32,162 nucleotides of DNA from a bacterium. Lineage in GTDB: Bacteria > SZUA-182 > DTGQ01 > JAFGSM01. The notes beneath the pieces are model-generated. The model made no database searches and had not been told where the DNA came from. It saw nothing but the letters and a program-made list of their open reading frames with translations. Positions 6,803-27,244 of this stretch are shown here, one piece after another. Every line of letters starts with the position of its first letter. Position 1 is the stretch's first letter. The translations under genes were made by a program, and so were the position numbers. The stretch covers positions 1-32,162 of the forward strand of contig JAFGSM010000188.1 of the NCBI GenBank assembly GCA_016934595.1, written 5' to 3'.

Positions 6803-9103
6803 ATGGTTAAGCTGAAGCAAGCCATCCTTTTTATCTGTCTATTTATCCTATTTTCCCCGTATCTTGGCGAAGGGGCGGAGGAATATATCCCTGTTCAAGC
6901 TATTGAAATAAATGGGCATCGTGTCATAGAAGAGGATACCATCAGGCATCAGATAAAAACCCGTGTAGGGGATATCTTTAAACCATTTCTCATCCGGCAG
7001 GATATCGTATCTATATATAAGATAGGTTACATCGAGGATATAAAGGTTGAATCCGAGCCATTCGAGGGCGGAATAAAGCTTATATACATCATAAAAGAGA
7101 GACCTTCAATCAGGAATATCATCTTTGAGGGAAACAAAAAGATAAAAATGGATACGCTCAAAGAGAAGATAGACCTGAAAGAGAAAACCTTTCTCGACAA
7201 AGGCGCCATCAATCAAAACATTGGCAAATTGATCCAGCACTATCAGAGCGAAGGGTTTTATCTGGTGGAGATCGATTATAGATTGGAGGATGTCGATGAG
7301 GGATGGGTCAACGTTTATATTATTATCGATGAAGGGAAAAAGGTGAAGATCAGGGAGATTGTTTTCTCAGGGAATGAGCATTTTAAAGACAGGGTACTCC
7401 AAAAGGAGATAGGCACCAAGACTTATGGACTTTTTTCATGGCTTTCAAGAAAGGGTTTTCTTAACAAAGAGGTATTGGATGCAGACCGCTTTAGAATACA
7501 AAATTATTATCTGGACAGGGGATTCATCCACTGCCAGGTTTTTTCACCTGTGGCGGAACTGGACGAAAAAAGGGAACGCCTGACTGTAATGTTTACTATC
7601 AACGAGGGTGATCTTTATCAGATTGAGGATGTATCCATTACAGGGAATTTTATTTACTCCATCGAGAACCTGGAAGAATTTATCAAGGTAAAATCCGGCG
7701 ATGTTTACTCAAGAAGCGCTATAAGCAAGGACACGATCAGCATCACCGATGCCTATGGAGAGAAAGGGTATCTTACAACTGAAGTCTATCCTTCGATTTC
7801 CGAGAAGCCGGATAAAAAAGCCGTTTCCATCATATACAGAATCAAAGAAGGGGGGCCTTCTTATCTGAGATGGATAAATATCTCGGGTAATAACAAGACC
7901 AGGGACAAGGTCATACGAAGGGAGATGAGCGTCAAAGAGGGTGATCTCCTTGATACAAAACGTATGCGTGAAAGCTACAGAAGGGTCAGAAGCTTGGGCT
8001 TTTTTGAGGAGCTGGACATGCAGACAGTTCCAACTATGCTTGAAGACAGGTTTGATCTGGACCTTACAGTTGAGGAGAGGCTTACAGGTCAGATAAGCCT
8101 TGGGGCAGGTTACAGCTCCGAGGATCATCTTGTGGGCACATTCGAGATCAGGCAGGGGAATCTGTTTGGCCGGGGACAGAGGCTTTCAGCAGCGGCTGAA
8201 CTGGGAGGAGAGCGGCAGACATACAGCCTTAGCTTCACCGAACCTTATTTCATGGACAAATCCCTGACGCTGGGAGCGGGGATCTATTACGAGATCAAGG
8301 AATATGACAATTATACAAGAAGCTCCCGAGGGGGTGACCTGAACTTTGGTTTTCCCCTTCCCATGGATTTCCGGTTTTTCACAAACTATAATTATGAAAA
8401 TGTGAATATAACCGAGGTAGACCCTTATATCCTGGCCAGGGATGCAAATAATCAGGAGTTGACCTTTTTTGAGCAAAGCCTGATCGATGCACAAGGGGAA
8501 TCAGACTCAAGCAGCCTTTTGTTCGCCATCTCCAGGGATACCAGGGATGACCGTTTCAGGCCTACGTCAGGGTCGAATAATCGCCTCTCTTTCAAATATG
8601 CAGGCGGGATTTTAGGAGGTGATAACTGGTTCTACAGCACAAGCATTGACAGCGGAATGTATATCCCCCTGCCATGGTGGAAATTTATCCTTGCCCTGCA
8701 TGGAAATTTGACTTATGCCAGCGGGCACGGCGGCAAGAATCTTCCGGTTTTTGAAAGGCTGTACTGCGGGGGCACCAGCACGGTAAGGGGTTACTCTCAA
8801 AGAGGCATAGGCCCGAAAGACATCTATGACAATCCTACAGGCGGAAATAAAAGGGTTGTTTTCAATACAGAGATTCATTTCCCTATCTATGAAGCTATGA
8901 ACGGGCTGTTTTTTTTCGATGCAGGCAATGTGTTTGACGAACAACAGTATTTTTTCGCAGAGTCTCTGAGGATGAGCGCCGGTATCGGCATACGCCTTTA
9001 TACTCCTATGGGTCCCATGCGTTTGGACTGGGGATACAAGCTTTTGAGAAGGGTTACAGAGAGCCCGTCTGACTGGCATTTTGCTATAGGGACATATTTT
9101 TGA
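6803..9103 (+). CDS. bamA: Outer membrane protein assembly factor BamA (POTRA repeats plus Omp85 beta-barrel)
   Basis: 766 aa. Signal peptide, multiple POTRA-like repeats, and a C-terminal beta-barrel ending in aromatic ...AIGTYF. The bamA-skp-lpxD order is canonical. Confidence 0.9.
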   Translation: MVKLKQAILFICLFILFSPYLGEGAEEYIPVQAIEINGHRVIEEDTIRHQIKTRVGDIFKPFLIRQDIVSIYKIGYIEDIKVESEPFEGGIKLIYIIKERPSIRNIIFEGNKKIKMDTLKEKIDLKEKTFLDKGAINQNIGKLIQHYQSEGFYLVEIDYRLEDVDEGWVNVYIIIDEGKKVKIREIVFSGNEHFKDRVLQKEIGTKTYGLFSWLSRKGFLNKEVLDADRFRIQNYYLDRGFIHCQVFSPVAELDEKRERLTVMFTINEGDLYQIEDVSITGNFIYSIENLEEFIKVKSGDVYSRSAISKDTISITDAYGEKGYLTTEVYPSISEKPDKKAVSIIYRIKEGGPSYLRWINISGNNKTRDKVIRREMSVKEGDLLDTKRMRESYRRVRSLGFFEELDMQTVPTMLEDRFDLDLTVEERLTGQISLGAGYSSEDHLVGTFEIRQGNLFGRGQRLSAAAELGGERQTYSLSFTEPYFMDKSLTLGAGIYYEIKEYDNYTRSSRGGDLNFGFPLPMDFRFFTNYNYENVNITEVDPYILARDANNQELTFFEQSLIDAQGESDSSSLLFAISRDTRDDRFRPTSGSNNRLSFKYAGGILGGDNWFYSTSIDSGMYIPLPWWKFILALHGNLTYASGHGGKNLPVFERLYCGGTSTVRGYSQRGIGPKDIYDNPTGGNKRVVFNTEIHFPIYEAMNGLFFFDAGNVFDEQQYFFAESLRMSAGIGIRLYTPMGPMRLDWGYKLLRRVTESPSDWHFAIGTYF

Positions 9104-9270
9104 TGGGTGCGGGTGAGCTTCCTTAATGGACCCTTTATCTCGAAAATAGATTCTATTTTAGTGATTCGTATTGACACCAAAAGTGGGATAGGCGTTTATC
9201 ATTTTATTAACCGTTTTTAGCCTGTTTTTTAAGGCTGAATAATCAAAAACAGGATTAGAGGAGGAATCAT

Positions 9271-9819
9271 ATGAGTTTTAGAATCAAGTCCATATTAATG
9301 TCGGTTTTGATTTTATCTTTTTTTACAGCATTTGTCCCGATATTTACCGGAATAGCAGGCTCAGCCGAGTTAAAGATCGGTTATATCAACAGTCAGAGAA
9401 TCCTTGAGGAGTCAAAGGCAGGCAGGGATGCGACCAAGTCTCTTGAAAATCTCGAGAAGGAGAAAACCGGCCAGGTGGAGCAAAAGAAAAAGGAGATCGA
9501 TGACCTGGAGAACGAGCTGAGAAAAAAGGAATTTGCCATTACCCCTGAGCGGAAAAAGGAGATAGAGGACAATATCAGGCACAAAAGCCTGGAGTTGAAA
9601 TTTTTCGGAGAGGTAAAGGATAAAGAGATCAAGGATCTATATATTAAAAGCCTCAAGAAGGTGGAAAGCCAGGTTATGGAGATTGTCCTGCAGATCGGTC
9701 AGCAAGAAGGTTATGACCTTGTGCTCGGACGGGATGAGAGCGGGATATTGTTCGCCAATCCGAAACACGACCTGACCGAAAAGGTCATACAGATTTATGA
9801 CCAAAAGATGCAGCAATAA
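9271..9819 (+). CDS. skp: Periplasmic chaperone Skp/OmpH
   Basis: 182 aa. Signal peptide then a highly charged coiled-coil-rich sequence. Strong RBS aggagg upstream. Located between bamA and lpxD. Confidence 0.85.
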   Translation: MSFRIKSILMSVLILSFFTAFVPIFTGIAGSAELKIGYINSQRILEESKAGRDATKSLENLEKEKTGQVEQKKKEIDDLENELRKKEFAITPERKKEIEDNIRHKSLELKFFGEVKDKEIKDLYIKSLKKVESQVMEIVLQIGQQEGYDLVLGRDESGILFANPKHDLTEKVIQIYDQKMQQ

Positions 9820-10967: not shown

Positions 10968-11120
10968 CTTGCTTTATATGAAAATGATCGAACAATGCTT
11001 TGTTTTTATTCATTTTCATGCTTCGTTGTGACTGTAAGGTCATGGGGGTTACTTAGCAATTTAATTATTTGAGTGTAACCAAAATAGAACATTGTTGCTT
11101 GTTCCAATTTTCCGGACATA

Positions 11121-11155
11121 CTGGATTCCGGCTTTCGACGGAATGACAAATAAGA
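11121..11155. repeat. Border repeat copy A: ctggattccg-N10-gaatgacaaataag
   Basis: Shares ctggattccg and gaatgacaaa(a)ta with 16765-16799. Contains a small inverted repeat attccg...cggaat. Lies just 3' of the AAA ATPase gene. Confidence 0.5.
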
Positions 11156-11178
11156 AATAGCACCATTTTGGTTACAAT

Positions 11179-12477
11179 CTAATTATTTTTGGTGGATTCA
11201 GTTTCTGATTTTTTTCTTGTCAGAAGCCATTTCCACAAAGGCACAAACTTTATATTCCTGCCATTTGAATCCTCAATTGAATCATAATCCCATGTAATTA
11301 CCGATAAGTCGTCACAATTTAGCTCTTCGCTTGCATCTATCAAAGATCTTATTTCCCTCTTTTTCACTGCCATCTCTTCTATTTGATAACAGACCTGTAT
11401 GAGATTTTTGACAGTCAATCCATCCCTTATAATAAAATCAACCTCTTTGTTGTTTTTGGTTTTATAATAAAAGACATCTTTATTTGGTTTATATCCATCT
11501 CTCAAAATCTCAAGGAAGACAAGATTTTCCATCAACCTCCCTGTATTTTGTGAGAACTGAAAGGATTTTGCCAGGATAAGGCCATTGTCCACAATATAGA
11601 TTTTCTTTGGGGACTTGATTTGCTCGCCAATTTTAAAAGAGAACCTGTTTAGTGAGAAGAATAGATAGGCATCTTCAAGATATCCCAAATAACTCTGAAC
11701 CGTGCCGGTGCTATTGAATTCAAGGGTATTTCTAATCTTTGTAGAACTAAACTCAGAACAAAAATTGCTTATCATGTACAATGCCAGATCATACATCTTT
11801 TGAGGAAATCTCACCCTGTATCTCTTAACAATATCTTTAAATAAAATGGCGTCAAAAAGTGTTTCCAGATATGTTCTGGTGTCAAGATCATTCATAACAA
11901 TCTCAGGAAACCCGCCATTCTTCAAAAAGCAGTCTAAGTGATTTAGAATCTTTCCTTTCATTTCAGGGATAATATCTTGATCTTTCTCCATCCTGACATT
12001 TTTGCTTCCGAGGAATTCACTGAAACTAAAAGGCAGAATCTCAATCGGCACATATCTTCCTGTTAATGCGGTTGCCAATTCTTTACTTAAGAGCCCTGCA
12101 TTTGATCCGGTCAAAACTAGATTATATCCTCTCCTTTGAAGCTTATTGACAAATAATTCCCAATTTTCTAAATTCTGTATCTCATCAAAAAAGATGAGAT
12201 CATGTTCTGGATAAACCTCGAAAATACCTTTAACAATATCATCAGTTGAAGCCTTTATAAGATTCTCATCGTCAAGGTTTAAATAGGCAAAGTTGCTTTT
12301 GTTTAATAGAAGAAAAGAAAATACGGATTTTCCAGCCCTCCTCGGACCGGTAATCACCTTTATCAGGGACGAATCCAAGAAATGCCTTGCAAAATCAAGC
12401 TTTTCGCGTAAAAGATAATTGCGTGAAAGTAGCTTTTCTTTCTCCTTCTTGTGTTGGATTATAAGCTCTTTTATCAT
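11179..12477 (-). CDS. AAA+ ATPase, DUF4143/COG1373 family (predicted ATPase)
   Basis: 432 aa with Walker A GPRRAGKS and Walker B-like DEIQ, matching the AAA_14 plus DUF4143 C-terminal architecture. The gene looks noticeably AT-richer than its neighbours (estimated by eye, not computed). Confidence 0.8.
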   Translation of the reverse strand: MIKELIIQHKKEKEKLLSRNYLLREKLDFARHFLDSSLIKVITGPRRAGKSVFSFLLLNKSNFAYLNLDDENLIKASTDDIVKGIFEVYPEHDLIFFDEIQNLENWELFVNKLQRRGYNLVLTGSNAGLLSKELATALTGRYVPIEILPFSFSEFLGSKNVRMEKDQDIIPEMKGKILNHLDCFLKNGGFPEIVMNDLDTRTYLETLFDAILFKDIVKRYRVRFPQKMYDLALYMISNFCSEFSSTKIRNTLEFNSTGTVQSYLGYLEDAYLFFSLNRFSFKIGEQIKSPKKIYIVDNGLILAKSFQFSQNTGRLMENLVFLEILRDGYKPNKDVFYYKTKNNKEVDFIIRDGLTVKNLIQVCYQIEEMAVKKREIRSLIDASEELNCDDLSVITWDYDSIEDSNGRNIKFVPLWKWLLTRKKSETESTKNN

Positions 12478-12575
12478 ATCTTAATCATATACTGGATATA
12501 ATTTTATATTTTTGTTCAATACAGTAACAATACCATATAAAATCATTATGTCAAATTCATGTTTTGATTTATTTT

Positions 12576-12698
12576 TGATGGCCTCGTAAAAAGTCTAAAA
12601 CGCCCCTAAAAATACGTTTAATATAATAAATTTGATATATATTTTGGCGATGTAATTGTTTTTCCTCAGCATCAAAATTACTTTTTACGAGGCCATCA
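12576..12698. mobile_element. MITE-like small repeat element, family A, full copy with 19-bp perfect terminal inverted repeats (tgatggcctcgtaaaaagt)
   Basis: Left TIR at 12576-12594; right TIR actttttacgaggccatca at 12680-12698. The internal about 85 bp recurs at about 85% identity at 32076-32162. A solo TIR-like copy is at 16918-16935. Confidence 0.6.
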
Positions 12699-12784
12699 TT
12701 TTTAACCCCTGAAACATGGGGCGTATTTTCTCTGTGCGCTCTGTGGTCTCCGTGGTGAATTATTACAGTATAAGGAGAATACAG

Positions 12785-13693
12785 CTACCCTGTGCAATAC
12801 CTGAATACGCGTCTTCCTACATTGATCGATTCCATCTCAAGCTCATAGGCAAGGGTGATTTCGGTGTTGGTTGAAAAGCCGCAAACATTGCATTGTATCT
12901 GTCCCCTGTTTTTTACGTAGCAGCCTGTGGTTATAGTGCCGTCCGGTTCAATGCTTGCGATCATCCAATCCTTGCACCTCTTGGTCCAATCATTGGACTT
13001 CAGGGCATCAAGCGCCTTGAAGGAGTTAGTCAGCGGCCATCCCTCCCTCTTCATCCTTATCAGTTCATCCAGCACCCGAACCCTTTTATCGGATGACAGC
13101 ATCAAAGGGTCTGCCTTTTCATAAGGATAGAAAAACTGTATGGTCACGCCCTTGACCTTCCCCTTCAGGAATCTTACCATGTCAGGTATTTCATTCCAGT
13201 TAAGCATGTTTATGGTAGTGTTTACGTAAAGGTTGGGGTGATTGCTTGCCTCAATTTTTTGGATTACCTGATCAAATATATCCCTGCCTCTTATGTGGTT
13301 ATGTGTCTCTTTTAGCCCATCCAAACTTACCCACAGGCTGTTTGAGTCAATATCCAGGGATATTGTCCCGTTTGTTGTGACGCCAACGCTGAAGAAGTAT
13401 TTTTTCGCTTCATTGACCACGTCATTGAGGCCGTATTGCCCATTCCTCCATAAAAACGGCTCACCCCCTTCTATAAGCAGTATCCTGATCCCCATATCAT
13501 ACAGTTTTTTCAAAACTGCCTGGATCTGTTTGAAATCCATTTGAGGAAGGTTTTCATGCCAGAAAGGGCAATGCCTGCATTTCAGGTTGCATTTATGTGT
13601 GATCTTGAACCCTGCAAGAAGCGGGGTCTTTTTGCCGAGCCACCGTGTCTTAAAGTAGTATCTTAAGAAATAGAAAAACCAGCCACTTTCCAT
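12785..13693 (-). CDS. Radical SAM enzyme (SPASM/twitch-clade) with a C-terminal auxiliary Cys cluster
   Basis: 302 aa. CNLKCRHC gives the CxxxCxxC motif, IEGGEPFL is a glycine-rich SAM motif, and the C-terminus reads C-x18-C-x9-C-x2-C (twitch-like). RBS ggggaaagaag upstream. Confidence 0.85.
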   Translation of the reverse strand: MESGWFFYFLRYYFKTRWLGKKTPLLAGFKITHKCNLKCRHCPFWHENLPQMDFKQIQAVLKKLYDMGIRILLIEGGEPFLWRNGQYGLNDVVNEAKKYFFSVGVTTNGTISLDIDSNSLWVSLDGLKETHNHIRGRDIFDQVIQKIEASNHPNLYVNTTINMLNWNEIPDMVRFLKGKVKGVTIQFFYPYEKADPLMLSSDKRVRVLDELIRMKREGWPLTNSFKALDALKSNDWTKRCKDWMIASIEPDGTITTGCYVKNRGQIQCNVCGFSTNTEITLAYELEMESINVGRRVFRYCTG

Positions 13694-13768
13694 CTGAAAA
13701 TCCCTTCTTGGTATCTTCTTTCCCCTTTGAGAATAAAATATTCATGGGTGTTTCACCTGATTATCCAC

Positions 13769-15721
13769 TTATGACAGATCAGTGATCTGCCTGTAAACCT
13801 CTTCCGCTTCAAGGAGGAAGCAGGGGTTTAAACCGTATAAACGGAAAAGCCAGCATCCGCCTCTGCACTCAGAAAGATGCGGGCATCTTAGGCAGCCTTC
13901 CTGCAAATCTTCGGGTATGTCCTTGCGAAATGATGCAAATCCATCCGTCCAGATATGTTGCATCGAATCCTTTCTGCAGTCACCTTCCTCTGTCTTCCTG
14001 GATGTTTTCACAGGGCATCCCTGCACTATGCCATTCGAGTTAATGCAAAAGGTGTTCCAACCACAGCCGCAAAAGAACGGGGCAGGGCGAAGGAATGGCT
14101 CAAGGGCTCCGAGATATCCGAATAGCTCCCCTGCCTCAACGGCAAATCCCCGCCTTCTGGCCTCCAAAATAAACCTGAAGGAATCCTTGACCGTCTCATG
14201 CTGATTGCGCAAGGGCTGGCCGTTGTCAAAGATACGGGGCTGGATCTGCAAGAGATTTGCCCCTGCCCGAAAAGCATCTTCGGTCAGTTTTGGAAATTCC
14301 CTGAGGTTTTCATCAAGGAGTATTGAGGACACGCAAATCCTTGGCGCGCCTATATCATGGAAGAATTCTATGGCCCTGATCCCCCGCTCATAAGAATCCT
14401 TGGAGTCCCTTATCCTGTTTTGCGTTTCACCATAACCATCCAGTGTTATGACCACAGAGTCAAACTTTGCATCGGACAGGGCTGCCACGTTTTCCTCAAC
14501 GGCATAGCCGTTTGTGGTAAGGCCCACCCTTATCCCTTTTTCTTTAGCATAGCGGGCTATTTCAAAAAGGTCTTTGCGAAGCAGAGGCTCTCCGCCGGTT
14601 AAAGATAGAAATCCGCAGCCCATATCAGCCAGATCATCGATGACCTTTTTTGCCTCTGATGTCTCAAGTTCCTGTGGGGTAGGATGCCCAGCCACTATCT
14701 CACAGTGGCCGCATTTAAACTGGCATTTATCTGTTATCACCCACTGCACATATTGGGGGCTGAGTTTGCCCTCCTGTAAATCCTGCTTGTATTTATTGAT
14801 AAAACCCTCTGAAGGAAGAACCTCCGCCTGAGGTCTTGGGTATTGATCTTTAGTGGTAAATGCCTCAGTGGCTTTTTTTGCCTCTTCGTGCGTTATTTTT
14901 GCCTCTTCATGCCCTATCTCTTTTGATTTTGCGGTTTCCGATTTTTCCTGTGTTTTGATCATCCTTTTTATATTATCGAGAAAAGGCGTCAAAAGGTCTA
15001 AAGGAAACGGGAAAAGGATGGTCGATCCCTTGTTTGTGGATATATCACGAAGGGTCTGGAGATACCTGAGCTGCAGGCCATGCGGATTGCTTGAGAGTAT
15101 CTCGCCTGCCTCTGCAAGGGTCCGGGATGCCTGATATTCGCCCTGGGCGTCTATAAGCCTTGCCCTTCGCTCACGCTCCGTCTCGGCCTGTTTGGCCATG
15201 GCCCTTTTCATCTCCTCAGGCAGTGTGACCTCCTTGATCTCCACCATAGTGATATTGATGCCCCACTGACTTATGTGCACGGATATGATCTCCTGCAGGT
15301 GTTTATTTATCTTTGCCTGCTGGCTCAGGAGTTCATCCAGTTCCACCTGACCCAGCACACTCCTCAATGTGGCCTGGGCAAGCAGGAAGGTGGATTGATA
15401 GATGTCCTGTATATTGATAATGGCCATTGCCGGATCAGAGACATGAAAATAAACGACTGCGTCCACCGTGACAGGGACATTATCCCTCGTCATTATATCC
15501 TGACGGGGCACATCTATGGACACCAGGCGCAGATCCACCCTCTGTATACGGTCTATCAGCGGTATTAGAATGACCAGCCCCGGGCCTTTTGTGGATAGAA
15601 ATTTCCCCAGGCGGAATACGACGGCTCGTTCATATTCTTTGAGTATCTTAAAGGCCGATCCAATGACGGCTATAGAGCCTAATATCAGCAATAATATTTT
15701 TATATATACAAGATTCATCAT
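13769..15721 (-). CDS. Fusion protein: N-terminal TM helix plus stomatin/SPFH (band-7) domain, linker, then C-terminal radical SAM with a full SPASM domain
   Basis: 650 aa. Residues about 1-250 are a classic stomatin-like SPFH domain (EYERAVVFRLGK..., ...EMKRAMAKQAETERERRA...). Residues about 320-650 carry CQFKCGHC (CxxxCxxC), LTGGEPLL and a 7-Cys SPASM (CGCGWNTFC...C..C...CLRCPHLSEC.GGC). Strong RBS agggagga upstream. Confidence 0.85.
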   Translation of the reverse strand: MMNLVYIKILLLILGSIAVIGSAFKILKEYERAVVFRLGKFLSTKGPGLVILIPLIDRIQRVDLRLVSIDVPRQDIMTRDNVPVTVDAVVYFHVSDPAMAIINIQDIYQSTFLLAQATLRSVLGQVELDELLSQQAKINKHLQEIISVHISQWGINITMVEIKEVTLPEEMKRAMAKQAETERERRARLIDAQGEYQASRTLAEAGEILSSNPHGLQLRYLQTLRDISTNKGSTILFPFPLDLLTPFLDNIKRMIKTQEKSETAKSKEIGHEEAKITHEEAKKATEAFTTKDQYPRPQAEVLPSEGFINKYKQDLQEGKLSPQYVQWVITDKCQFKCGHCEIVAGHPTPQELETSEAKKVIDDLADMGCGFLSLTGGEPLLRKDLFEIARYAKEKGIRVGLTTNGYAVEENVAALSDAKFDSVVITLDGYGETQNRIRDSKDSYERGIRAIEFFHDIGAPRICVSSILLDENLREFPKLTEDAFRAGANLLQIQPRIFDNGQPLRNQHETVKDSFRFILEARRRGFAVEAGELFGYLGALEPFLRPAPFFCGCGWNTFCINSNGIVQGCPVKTSRKTEEGDCRKDSMQHIWTDGFASFRKDIPEDLQEGCLRCPHLSECRGGCWLFRLYGLNPCFLLEAEEVYRQITDLS

Positions 15722-15761: not shown

Positions 15762-16784
15762 TCAGAGTTTGCCTCCCAATCCAATAAGGTTCATAACAAA
15801 CCATAAAAGCCCCATGATTGAAAATATGGAAAAGATCACAGACAAAAGGCCGTATATGGAAAGCCAATGAAACCGTTTTTTGCGCAGGTATTCCTTCCCT
15901 TTTTGCCTCATGTTCACTGTGCGTGAGAAGTCTGATAGAAGCCAGTATCCGTCTCCGTTGACCAGCGGATTCATAATAATGCTCCACCTTGTGTATTGCA
16001 GGATGAGAAGCGGGGTTACATAGTATTCAGCCGCAGGGTAATAGATTGCAAGGGCAACGAGCAATGAATTAAGGCCCATGTCCATAAGGATGCCCGCTGA
16101 GTTTATTAGCAGGCGGATATTTCTTGGAAGGCACCAGGCTGCGTGCGTGTCCATATATACGGCAGGGAAAAACCAAAGGAATGTGAAACCAAGTCGCGGG
16201 GCAAAATACTTCCTTGCGCTGAGATAGTGTCCCAATTCATGCAGGATGATCGGGATGATGGAAATAAGCCCGACTATCAATGCATCATACCATCTTCCAA
16301 GACGGAATGTGCGCGCAATATTTTGAAAATACTCAATTTGTATAGCAGCCAGCAGAAAAAACAGGAGGACGAAAGGGGCGATGTGTATATCGTCCTGTTG
16401 ACCCGACTTGGTGATTTTGCCCTCCCTTGGAGAGACAATGGCTCCCTCGCGGCGGAGATTTGCGATCAATCCGTTGAGTTCCTTTTGATCGATCTTGTAT
16501 TTTGTGCATAACGGGACAACAGGCATTCCAGCGTTCAGTTCCATTAGAAGGCGTAATGTGAGCCAATCCACATGGAACAGCCCCTTCGAAGGTGTGCGGA
16601 TCCATATTGTGCCGTCATCCAGGAAGCCGTACTCGAACCGGAGGGATTGATTATAGCTTTTTCTCTCAGGTTCAGTGTAGGCAGGATGTGGTGACGGACT
16701 GCCTGAAATTTTCTGCTGCAAAAATGGCATATTCAAGATTTTCTTATTTTCCTTATTTAAAGCGCTGGATTCCGTGTCAGGCAC
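15762..16784 (-). CDS. Membrane zinc metalloprotease, M50 (site-2 protease) family, with an N-terminal cytoplasmic PqqD/RRE-like domain
   Basis: HELGH in a TM helix and NPLVNGDG in a later TM helix match the M50 HExxH plus LDG motifs. N-terminal segment HVDWLTLRLLMELNAGMPVVPLCTKYKIDQKELNGLIANLRREGAIV resembles PqqD-like peptide-binding domains (inference). The start may be the internal Met (MPFLQQ...) rather than the GTG at 16784. Confidence 0.7.
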   Translation of the reverse strand: MPDTESSALNKENKKILNMPFLQQKISGSPSPHPAYTEPERKSYNQSLRFEYGFLDDGTIWIRTPSKGLFHVDWLTLRLLMELNAGMPVVPLCTKYKIDQKELNGLIANLRREGAIVSPREGKITKSGQQDDIHIAPFVLLFFLLAAIQIEYFQNIARTFRLGRWYDALIVGLISIIPIILHELGHYLSARKYFAPRLGFTFLWFFPAVYMDTHAAWCLPRNIRLLINSAGILMDMGLNSLLVALAIYYPAAEYYVTPLLILQYTRWSIIMNPLVNGDGYWLLSDFSRTVNMRQKGKEYLRKKRFHWLSIYGLLSVIFSIFSIMGLLWFVMNLIGLGGKL

Positions 16785-26422: not shown

Positions 26423-27244
26423 TTACCAACCGCCGCTTGCCCCGCCTCCCCCGCTCATGCCTCCGCCGAAGCCGCCGAACCCTCCGCTGAATCCGCCTCT
26501 GCCGCTTGACCATCCCCCTCCGCCAGGAAATCCCAAAAACAGAAGAGGCCAAAGGCCGCTTCTTATCAGGAATATGAATATAAATAGAAATAACAGCAAT
26601 GAGAATATGCCTCCTAACCTTGAGGATTTTTGGGATATATTGGATATGTCTTCGGGGTTGGTCCTGAAAGCCATTCCATCAGGCAGGCTGATCCCGTATT
26701 CTTTGGCTATCAGGTTAAGCACAGACTCTGTTCCGGCCAATAGACCCTGATCGAAACGGCCTTGTTTGAAGTTTGGTGTGATGACCTGACGGATAATCTC
26801 GCCTGCTGTGCCGTCCGTTATAGCGCCTTCGAGGCCATATCCCACCTCTATCCTGACCTTCCTTTCCTCGACGGCCACAAGGATAAGTATGCCGTTGTCC
26901 TTATCCTTCTGTCCGATCCGCCATTTTTCAAAAAGAAGGACTGCATAATCTTCAATATTGTAAGGGCTGATTGTTTTCAGGGTTACAACCGCCACCTCTG
27001 AGCCTGTCTTCTGTTTCATGTATGTAATCAAATTATTTAAATGCTGGACGGATTCGGATGACAGGAGCTTTGCAAGGTCAGTCACATAACCCTGCGGCGC
27101 AGGAAAGAAGGTTTCTTTTGCATTTGCCGCGCAGGAAAAGGGATATATAACAAGGACGATAATAGCAAGAAAAATGGCGAATTTAATGAGGGCTGATATT
27201 TTTATGTCTTTATCCCGGTTCAGGAAAGGGTTCCTTATATTCAT
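26423..27244 (-). CDS. TPM-domain protein (TLP18.3/Psb32/MOLO-1 family) with a TM anchor and Gly-rich C-terminal tail
   Basis: 273 aa. Signal/TM, then a TPM phosphatase-like domain (GILILVAVEERKVRIEVGYGLEG), a second TM, and a GGxGG-rich tail. Confidence 0.8.
   Translation of the reverse strand: MNIRNPFLNRDKDIKISALIKFAIFLAIIVLVIYPFSCAANAKETFFPAPQGYVTDLAKLLSSESVQHLNNLITYMKQKTGSEVAVVTLKTISPYNIEDYAVLLFEKWRIGQKDKDNGILILVAVEERKVRIEVGYGLEGAITDGTAGEIIRQVITPNFKQGRFDQGLLAGTESVLNLIAKEYGISLPDGMAFRTNPEDISNISQKSSRLGGIFSLLLFLFIFIFLIRSGLWPLLFLGFPGGGGWSSGRGGFSGGFGGFGGGMSGGGGASGGW

Follow-up and report, generated by a model that had tools for sequence, protein, structure and literature searches.

The window analysed here, a bacterial contig of 32,162 nucleotides (JAFGSM010000188.1 of assembly GCA_016934595.1), carries on its minus strand a gene, g2, which joins a complete stomatin-type SPFH scaffold to a complete radical S-adenosylmethionine (SAM) enzyme with a SPASM domain in one protein. 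The NCBI record of this protein, MBN2374060.1, is annotated only as 'radical SAM protein'. Directly upstream lies g1, which encodes a predicted intramembrane metalloprotease preceded by a domain resembling the recognition element (RRE) of pathways for peptides that are ribosomally synthesised and modified after translation (RiPPs). The two genes and the modules of the fusion are arranged as follows.

15762–16730, minus strand: g1, an RRE-like winged-helix domain (amino acids ~30–110) followed by a site-2-protease-like intramembrane metalloprotease, directly upstream of g2.
13769–15721, minus strand: g2, the whole fusion (stomatin-type SPFH module, linker, radical SAM/SPASM enzyme), ATG start, 650 amino acids.
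14981–15721, minus strand: stomatin module of g2, amino acids 1–247 (Pfam Band_7, phmmer, Foldseek).
14762–14980, minus strand: variable charged linker, amino acids 248–320, with the HEEAK repeat inside it (pLDDT, orthologue alignment).
14252–14761, minus strand: radical SAM core, amino acids 321–490 (Pfam PF04055, invariant motifs, pLDDT, Foldseek).
13769–14251, minus strand: bridging region and SPASM auxiliary-cluster domain, amino acids 491–650 (Pfam PF13186, eight invariant cysteines).

A first-pass annotation of the sequence had described the N-terminal 250 residues or so as a membrane-anchored stomatin-like domain, and profile and structure comparisons bear this out. Indeed, Band_7/SPFH (PF01145) matches residues 26–195 at 129.3 bits, far above the Pfam gathering score of 23.6, and a phmmer search of PDB sequences aligns residues 12–246 with residues 62–298 of human stomatin (E 5e-64), a span that covers stomatin from the membrane anchor to its C-terminal end. 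This half also matches Pyrococcus horikoshii stomatin (3e-49) and Escherichia coli QmcA (7e-36) and, when the AlphaFold model is used as the Foldseek query, stomatin cage chains, PH1511 and QmcA (9oh9, 9z7u, 3bk6, 8z5g). All the parts that define the stomatin subfamily are found beside the Band_7 domain, i.e., a membrane anchor, a wall helix (169–211), a cap helix (215–228), and a cap β-strand ending in P-x-P (KGSTILFPFP, 231–240, or K231-GSTILF-P238-F-P240). In an alignment of 16 g2 orthologues, on which every statement of invariance in g2 rests, S233, T234, F237, P238, and P240 of this strand do not vary, and their spacing equals that of human stomatin K263/S265/P270/P272. The anchor is a hydrophobic helix at about residues 5–24, with no charge ahead of it and K25, K28, R32, R37, and K40 behind it; the positive-inside rule predicts that the remainder of the protein is cytoplasmic, where an iron–sulfur (Fe-S)/SAM enzyme must be. 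In the 2.2 Å structure of the human stomatin 16-mer, the strand K263/N264/S265...P270/P272 of every subunit contributes to the β-barrel that closes the cage, the residues following the prolines are directed either into the apical pore or away from it, and the final ~10 residues protrude at the apex (PMC12344292). Because g2 retains the cap strand, and the C-terminal end of stomatin lies there, its radical SAM domain is tethered flexibly exactly where stomatin ends. From these conserved oligomerisation elements we infer that the stomatin module of g2 forms a membrane cage, such as the 16–26-mers of this subfamily.

The C-terminal 330 residues likewise proved to be a complete radical SAM enzyme, as first annotated, of the kind that matures peptides. 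They carry the superfamily hallmarks, namely CxxxCxxC (CQFKCGHC, 333–340, with C333, C337, and C340 invariant), the GGE motif (GGEP at 376–379, G376-G377-E378-P379 all invariant), and a Radical_SAM match (PF04055, residues 328–482) of 96.2 bits against a cut-off of 29.5. SPASM (PF13186) matches residues 551–614 at 24.3 bits, above its cut-off of 21.5. The seven-cysteine SPASM domain of the first reading was essentially right: the last 100 residues hold 10 cysteines, eight of which are invariant (551, 559, 569, 610, 613, 619, 623, and 634). Their arrangement, CX12GX4C...CX2CX5CX3C...C (C551...G564-x4-C569, C610-x2-C613-x5-C619-x3-C623, C634), falls within the pattern that defines the SPASM group (CX9-15GX4C ... 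CX2CX5CX3C ... C). Among PDB sequences this half matches BlsE, SkfB, and PqqE (E 4e-14 to 1e-12), and by fold SkfB, SuiB, CteB, anSME, and PqqE. It stays below the cut-off of every named NCBIfam radical SAM family; the best score is that of MftC (TIGR03962; 138.2 bits against 265), and other RiPP maturases (nif11 class 3, GDL-trio, StsB, WgkB, DynA, SkfB, PqqE, ScmE/F) are far from theirs. Searched alone against 1.84 billion cluster representatives, the radical SAM half found the fusions as one representative, one unfused relative at 42% identity, and the rest at 37% or less, which shows, at the level of sequence, that it belongs to a narrow clade. Ten long matches among its distant relatives were checked for further fusions of this kind, and all were tandem radical SAM proteins or glycosyltransferase (GT2) fusions, none with Band_7 (0/10).

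The two halves are joined by the low-complexity linker, whose tandem repeat, noted at first reading as HEEAK(I/K), is HEEAKIT/HEEAKKA at amino acids 271–283 (nucleotides 14873–14911). The linker is variable and appears disordered: in the AlphaFold2 model the pLDDT falls below 50 at residues 256–303 and reaches 85–95 in the radical SAM core. A search of 5.8 billion proteins recovered about 19 full-length orthologues of 619–884 amino acids and 56–71% identity, drawn from NCBI metagenome-assembled genomes (MAGs) as well as JGI, ENA, and Logan assemblies, and all of them hold Band_7 and Radical_SAM (plus SPASM) in a single open reading frame; split genes are found in distant relatives. Both halves are strongly conserved among the 16 aligned orthologues, in contrast to the linker sequence, which stretches from the cap strand to the enzyme's 'YVQW' lead-in, is 37–141 amino acids long in them, and reaches ~270 in one further protein (P0017; locus L007, 8001–10655, 884 amino acids). 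In the P0017 linker, 'SNQQP(A/G)A' and 'SSQYPA' repeats abound, and the radical SAM half of this protein contains two Gly/Ser/Asp-rich insertions; the tether and some surface loops would therefore seem, from this sequence, to tolerate large low-complexity expansions.

The M50 intramembrane protease which had been noticed next door is g1, whose longest open reading frame reaches a GTG at 16784. It is a polytopic membrane protein with a sub-threshold Pfam M50 match, in which we find the signature of M50/site-2 proteases (S2P), i.e., an HExxH motif in a membrane helix (HELGH, 164–168), a downstream motif of the NxxPxxxxDG type (NPLVNGDGY, 254–262), and the S2P core fold. HE[LM]GH and NPxxxGDGY are invariant in the g1 family, which comprises 48 clusters in all, its more distant members at 43–51% identity. 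The AlphaFold model (pLDDT 86.7) consists of an N-terminal β-β-β-α-α-α domain and then six membrane helices, and the fold of the membrane part matches the site-2 proteases SpoIVFB (7.6), MJ0392 (7.2), and RseP (7.0). By sequence, the N-terminal domain gives weak winged-helix matches only, and fold comparison was needed to relate it to PqqD and the RREs; its predicted three-stranded sheet followed by three helices resembles leader-bound, PqqD-like RREs. On the strength of this model, g1 is an RRE fused to a site-2-type protease. We found no description of such an architecture, for which the literature was not searched specifically. In NCBIfam, g1 matches only the RiPP intramembrane proteases of the daptide and YydH/LiaK kinds, at 48–51 bits against cut-offs of 225–300.

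The contexts of eleven fusion loci (loci are numbered L002, L004, and so on) were read, and what follows on the co-occurrence of scaffold and protease rests on contexts taken one by one. g1 lies directly upstream of the fusion in all eleven, and nine of them show the order g1-g2-g3-g4, as a tight, co-directional cassette in which the start of g3 overlaps the end of the fusion. g3 encodes a second radical SAM/SPASM enzyme of ~368 amino acids, whose best NCBIfam score is 278 bits against a cut-off of 725. No more than ~25 residues separate the radical SAM cores of g2 and g3 from the linker or the N-terminus, and neither enzyme has an RRE of its own. The g4 proteins (26 distinct sequences, 139–260 amino acids) have one leader in common, the almost invariant N-terminus M[AP]HIFFE[KR]LE[KN]R[RQK]STQ[ST]L (MAHIFFEKLENRRSTQ). 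The hypervariable bodies behind it are composed of Ser, Pro, Gly, Tyr, Phe, and Trp; Cys accounts for 0.1% of them and charged residues for 5.6%. In 25 bodies, [LYFIMW]Y[GA][VIL] occurs 71 times versus 2.7 ± 1.6 in composition-preserving shuffles (26-fold), and the recurring motifs are (L/Y)YG(V/I), W(N/S)NPF, and F(F/L)SP.(W/R)N..GG(L/F)FG. No g4 protein matches Pfam or NCBIfam, and they are annotated 'hypothetical protein'; the other database labels in the cassette are 'SPFH domain-containing protein' and 'radical SAM protein'. A scan of one genome per species located leader-bearing genes in about a dozen MAGs, often at 2–3 loci per genome and often far from the cassette. A leader-profile search of the 5.8 billion proteins gave one match, a 57-amino-acid fragment, and is uninformative on family size, precursors being in that collection. 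Judged by sequence, a leader, a variable multi-motif body, two radical SAM/SPASM enzymes, and an RRE-protease together follow the grammar of a RiPP pathway, with an unusually long 'core'.

Some cassettes depart from this order or are duplicated. At L028 the fusion has no g3 or g4 downstream, and a precursor and radical SAM genes stand upstream; unfused g2-type radical SAM enzymes adjoin precursors both there and at L029. The L028 cassette (precursor, two unfused radical SAM genes, g1, fusion) is bracketed by two proteins, at 123–1295 and 8410–9693, which resemble FtsX/MacB permeases by eye and could be a dedicated exporter. One MAG (GCA_040752695.1) holds two cassettes, L006 7619–11941 and L009 7022–11891, the former degenerate, with g1 cut to 130 amino acids and a precursor of 99 amino acids, its fusion and g3 being intact. 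At L004, a leader-only mini-open reading frame (11720–11893; MAHIFFERLENRQSTQALYGGED and a stop) sits between two full-length precursor genes and is a pseudogene or else a shortened paralogue.

More distant relatives encode the scaffold and the enzyme separately. Five such contexts of g1 were read, and in four of them (L030, L032, L033, L034) a stand-alone stomatin adjoins g1.

L030 (Elusimicrobiota MAG): g3-type radical SAM gene, repeat lipoprotein, stand-alone stomatin, precursor, unfused radical SAM gene, g1, and an OEP/MFP/RND efflux set.
L031: precursor, radical SAM/SPASM–ATP-grasp fusion, g1.
L032: precursor, g3-type radical SAM gene, g1, then a stand-alone stomatin directly downstream (61% identical to the fusion N-half).
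L033: g1, then a stomatin directly downstream, with no radical SAM gene nearby.
L034: g3-type radical SAM gene, lipoprotein, ATP-grasp, g1, stomatin.

The L030 stomatin (251 amino acids) is 60% identical to the N-terminal half of the fusion, and the unfused L030 radical SAM enzyme (380 amino acids) is 44% identical to its C-terminal half and shares the 'YVQW' lead-in at the N-terminus. Against the fusion N-half the split stomatins reach 318 and 298 bits, more than the best free stomatins among the 5.8 billion proteins (at most 282). L030, L031, and L032 again carry the leader core hF.E.LE.R(R/K)(S/N)T, on different repeat bodies (KYGPGP / MYGIEP, KYAPP): the L030 precursor begins MDKKKLFLEDLEQRKSTSS... 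and has the repeats KYGPGP and VQPMYGIEPTPVP, and that of L032 begins MKKKLLIEDLEKRRSTSS... and has KYAPP repeats. SPFH1 genes normally pair with NfeD proteases (229/353; PMC2636767); an NfeD partner (PF01957) was found neither in the window cassette nor in any locus read, fused or split. Since the stomatin adjoins g1 where scaffold and radical SAM enzyme are separate genes, g1 plus stomatin looks like a recurrent, ancestral unit, and the fusion to the radical SAM enzyme like a derived state of one clade. This comparison of split and fused gene arrangements is the evidence for a functional tie of the scaffold to both the protease and the radical SAM pathway. Indeed, the covalent joining of enzyme and scaffold in one lineage, with protease, stomatin, and radical SAM genes side by side elsewhere, constitutes a Rosetta-stone argument.

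Two other features of these distant clusters are recorded here. An ATP-grasp enzyme is fused to the radical SAM/SPASM enzyme in L031 (5926–8001, 691 amino acids) and is a separate gene in L034 (5191–6117), so that ATP-grasp and radical SAM appear to be another Rosetta-stone pair in the same cluster family. A lipoprotein-like protein of 303 amino acids that belongs to no Pfam family directly follows the g3-type radical SAM gene in L030 (4211–5122) and L034 (4280–5191); its ~eight repeats ending in 'YLG.PHKW' suggest a β-propeller.

The explanation that best accounts for these arrangements, and that we consider rather probable, is that g2 is a conserved bifunctional scaffold-maturase anchored in the inner membrane, the second gene of the cassette, with scaffold-organised maturation beside g1. 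The stomatin module would oligomerise around g1, as a ring or cage at the cytoplasmic side of the membrane, in the manner of stomatin, QmcA, and HflK/C with their clients; g1 would lie inside this assembly or next to it, like FtsH relative to HflK/C, or aquaporin-1 and urea transporter-B relative to stomatin. The RRE of g1 would hold the precursor leader, and the radical SAM domains of g2 and g3, without an RRE of their own, would reach the substrate through the scaffold, which would keep them concentrated beside g1. They would modify the repeated Tyr-Gly-Val/Ile sites of the precursor, most likely by triceptide-type cross-linking (C-C or C-O) or by Val/Ile epimerisation as in epipeptides; thioether chemistry is unlikely because the g4 bodies are nearly Cys-free. 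g1 would then cleave off the leader and might pass the product to the membrane or to an exporter. Precedents exist for both activities: radical SAM/SPASM enzymes make triceptides on aromatic-X-X motifs (PMC11499958), and the M50 protease EpeP processes an epipeptide made by a radical SAM enzyme and is thought to export it (PMC10885120). A bolder version, which we regard as tentative and hold to be doubtful at present, is that the stomatin cage is a dedicated membrane reaction chamber or assembly line, where an SPFH oligomer with at least 16 tethered radical SAM domains corrals the RRE-protease and aromatic-rich, leader-tagged proteins of ~200 amino acids are turned into multiply cross-linked or epimerised products.

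The first-pass annotation had already proposed radical SAM chemistry organised in a membrane microdomain together with a protease. The genetic side of this proposal stands, with g1 preceding the fusion in 11/11 loci and a stomatin adjoining g1 in 4/5; the scaffold–protease contact, the cage, and the chemistry are putative. Its term 'peptide-modifying' gains from the leader-bearing precursors of the relatives and from the RRE fold of g1, and is weakened by the precursor and the second radical SAM gene not being in the window.

Several points weigh against the scaffold-maturase reading as a whole. Oligomerisation of the fusion, its contact with g1, and the role of the g4 proteins as substrates are putative. 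The structure prediction that had been asked of the two domains separated them, the Foldseek matches splitting into stomatin and radical SAM/SPASM; the model is good in the radical SAM core and mediocre to poor in the SPFH part, with a pLDDT of 64 overall, and is of a monomer only. The enzyme half reaches no cut-off of a named family, so that any chemistry assigned to it is conjectural. The geometry is also awkward: stomatin C-termini exit at a closed, narrow apex, which would place at least 16 radical SAM domains of 38 kDa outside and g1 inside, and an open or partial assembly, or threading of the substrate through the apical pore, would be needed. The g4 bodies, low in complexity and 140–240 amino acids long, greatly exceed classical RiPP cores in length. 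With stomatins so highly conserved, it is modest differences in score that support the orthology of the split and fused SPFH modules. At L031, g1 has no SPFH gene nearby. Moreover, when g3, six g4 proteins, and the leader were searched in the 32-kb window by tblastn, only paralogous radical SAM matches and one low-complexity match came back. This last match, of a Gly-rich C-terminal tail (GGGGWSSGRGGFSGGFGGFGGG...), is weak and falls in a TPM-domain protein (26423–27244, minus strand), which was rejected as a precursor because the match is a low-complexity coincidence.

Each component of the proposed system is of a known kind, a SPFH–protease pair on the one side and a radical SAM/SPASM RiPP pathway on the other, and, as far as the sequences tell, it is their union that is new. 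Every domain of life has SPFH scaffolds, whose molecular role is debated beyond the surrounding of membrane proteases or channels; the SPFH–protease pairs include stomatin-NfeD/STOPP PH1511-PH1510, QmcA-YbbJ, HflK/C-FtsH, and prohibitin-m-AAA. Like stomatin and QmcA, g2 begins with the anchor and continues with the SPFH domain, the wall helix, the cap helix, and the two-proline cap strand, and along the full chain it shares 42–52% identity with human and archaeal stomatin. It is also genetically coupled to a membrane protease, but its partner is an RRE-bearing site-2-type metalloprotease and not NfeD or FtsH, and its C-terminus bears a 330-residue radical SAM enzyme where stomatin ends ~10 residues past the cap strand. 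The epipeptide pathway of Bacillus subtilis (YydF/EpeX, YydG/EpeE, YydH/EpeP) similarly puts a radical SAM enzyme and an M50-type intramembrane protease to work on a ribosomal precursor, and the protease matches of g1 point the same way, though at the low scores given above; the N-terminal RRE of g1, the two radical SAM/SPASM enzymes, the repeat precursors of ~200 amino acids, and the SPFH scaffold are the differences. With the triceptide/cyclophane maturases (3-CyFEs; WgkB, DynA, DarE) the cassette shares radical SAM/SPASM enzymes and precursors with multiple aromatic-X-X motifs, and the Y-G-(V/I) of g4 fits the aromatic-X2-X3 format (PMC11499958), a cross-link here being hypothetical. Triceptide precursors are short, however, their enzymes soluble and without a membrane scaffold, and g2 and g3 reach no family cut-off. 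Finally, MftC is the best NCBIfam match of g2 and PqqE is among its PDB matches, and in PqqE/PqqD and MftC/MftB the RRE is likewise on another polypeptide than the radical SAM enzyme. Here, by contrast, there are no MftA/B/D/E/F or Pqq genes (none of the mft genes was found in the window), and the RRE sits on a membrane protease instead of a small soluble chaperone.

In agreement with the first-pass annotation, which knew of no described fusion of this kind, we found no description of the SPFH–radical SAM fusion, the leader family, or the cassette in Pfam, NCBIfam, PDB, or the full-text paper library searched. A link to conflict systems was rejected, the one paper in which 'stomatin', 'SPASM', and 'radical SAM' occur being unrelated. 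The family stands outside Pfam and NCBIfam models and is uncharacterised, with its leader hFFE.LE.RRST, unusual precursors, RRE-site-2 protease, and two radical SAM/SPASM enzymes. This would be the first SPFH scaffold tied into natural-product-type biosynthesis. The cassette points to a specific pathway as the client of a stomatin, in which the contribution of the scaffold can be tested directly with and without the SPFH module, and it suggests membrane co-localisation as one way in which maturases devoid of an RRE find their substrate. If the reaction-chamber version is true, it would represent a RiPP-like class that is new, its precursors giant and multi-site, and the first defined biochemical client pathway of a bacterial stomatin beyond a protease alone. 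It should be of high interest to specialists of both the SPFH and the RiPP fields, with a mechanism that is a well-motivated inference.

The alternative that survives best, unlikely as we think it, is that the SPFH module is a mere membrane tether or a generic quality-control scaffold, a housekeeping stomatin gene having entered the fusion because it happened to lie adjacent, with neither a specific g1 partnership nor any cage chemistry. Stomatins are abundant and very conserved, and the module is 57–60% identical to many unrelated free stomatins. The L031 context agrees with this view, and it is not obvious how a closed cage would aid an enzyme tethered at its apex in reaching a client inside (PMC12344292). 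On the contrary, chance adjacency accounts poorly for a stomatin adjoining g1 in four differently arranged, distant clusters and fused in a fifth arrangement, none of these g1-linked stomatins having the usual NfeD partner (PMC2636767). Moreover, every stomatin oligomerisation element is invariant in the fusion, and a mere anchor would not need them.

A second alternative concerns the window locus itself, which is truncated relative to the scaffold-maturase cassettes of its relatives. Its downstream features are the following.

13694–13778, strand not assigned: junction where relatives have g3 and g4 (blastn synteny with L002).
12785–13693, minus strand: radical SAM protein of 302 amino acids with DUF3463, found by synteny after the cassette in the closest relatives too.

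By blastn, window 16640–13778 (g1 and the fusion) corresponds to L002 5507–8431, and window 13685–12802 to L002 10733–11616, the DUF3463 radical SAM gene located after g4 in L002; the 2.3 kb that hold g3 and g4 in L002 are thus opposed to ~93 bp in the window. The C-terminus of the window fusion is clipped where g3 would start, reading ITDLS and a stop versus ITDAAALYPQTP and a stop in the orthologues. A leader-core pattern search and listings of small open reading frames in the flanking intergenic regions of the window yielded nothing. From this alignment g3 and g4 appear to have been lost from the window locus, and the substrate would have to be encoded elsewhere in the genome. The locus might instead be a decaying remnant, g1 and the fusion having become functionless after the deletion of g3 and the precursor. 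The deletion, the clipped C-terminus, and the lack of a leader-bearing open reading frame anywhere in the 32-kb contig speak for such decay, as does the degenerate second cassette of another MAG (L006). Nevertheless, both window genes are intact and keep all family-invariant residues; the fusion leaves otherwise invariant columns nine times, as singleton changes that are all conservative, within a family range of 0–14. Related MAGs have 2–3 dispersed precursor loci, with many orphan copies far from cassettes, and L028, likewise without g3 and g4 downstream, has a precursor and radical SAM genes upstream. As precursors are dispersed in related genomes and L028 has the same gap, we think that a substrate encoded in trans is more likely than a dead locus in this genome, and decay seems improbable to us.

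A non-peptide substrate is more improbable still. Here the radical SAM half, perhaps with the DUF3463 (HpnH-like) enzyme, would modify a lipid or cofactor in an SPFH microdomain. The DUF3463 gene lies directly downstream in the window and in three relatives, with weak HpnH/PTO1314 similarity, and SPASM enzymes acting on non-peptides (AhbD, NirJ, BlsE) are among the matches. This gene is absent, however, from most cassettes, and its HpnH score is 54 bits against 225; the RRE fold of g1 is typical of leader-peptide recognition, and leader-bearing precursors are the tightly linked fourth gene of the cassette and also stand beside unfused g2-type radical SAM enzymes.

Finally, that a sequencing or assembly frameshift or a mis-join welded a separate stomatin gene to a radical SAM gene has practically no chance of being true, even if split versions of both genes exist elsewhere (L030, L032, L034): 19 independent assemblies from four sources keep one continuous open reading frame, the linkers of the orthologues differ by whole codons and in sequence, and the window open reading frame has no stop or alternative start between its halves; neither an artefact nor a non-SPFH N-terminal half, which the first-pass annotation had named as refutations, was found.

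The DUF3463 radical SAM protein has orthologues of 301–302 amino acids in its three closest relatives, at L002/L013 (L002 10725–11630), L012 (11948–12853), and L023 (6690–7595), and none in the other cassettes. Its best matches, PTO1314 and HpnH, both score far below cut-off, and it may be a third tailoring enzyme or a mere neighbour. A scan for promoters and terminators in the cassette gave nothing above shuffle expectation. The other window genes are of the diderm housekeeping kind (LysS, a Lol-like ABC transporter, ClpB, BamA, Skp, LpxD, the ATP synthase operon, and GlnS). Beside the cassette, an AAA_14/DUF4143 ATPase gene (11179–12477, minus strand) lies in a stretch with a G+C of 0.35–0.37 (11001–13000) versus ~0.47 elsewhere; it may have been inserted recently, and a link with the rearrangement by which g3 and g4 were removed is possible.

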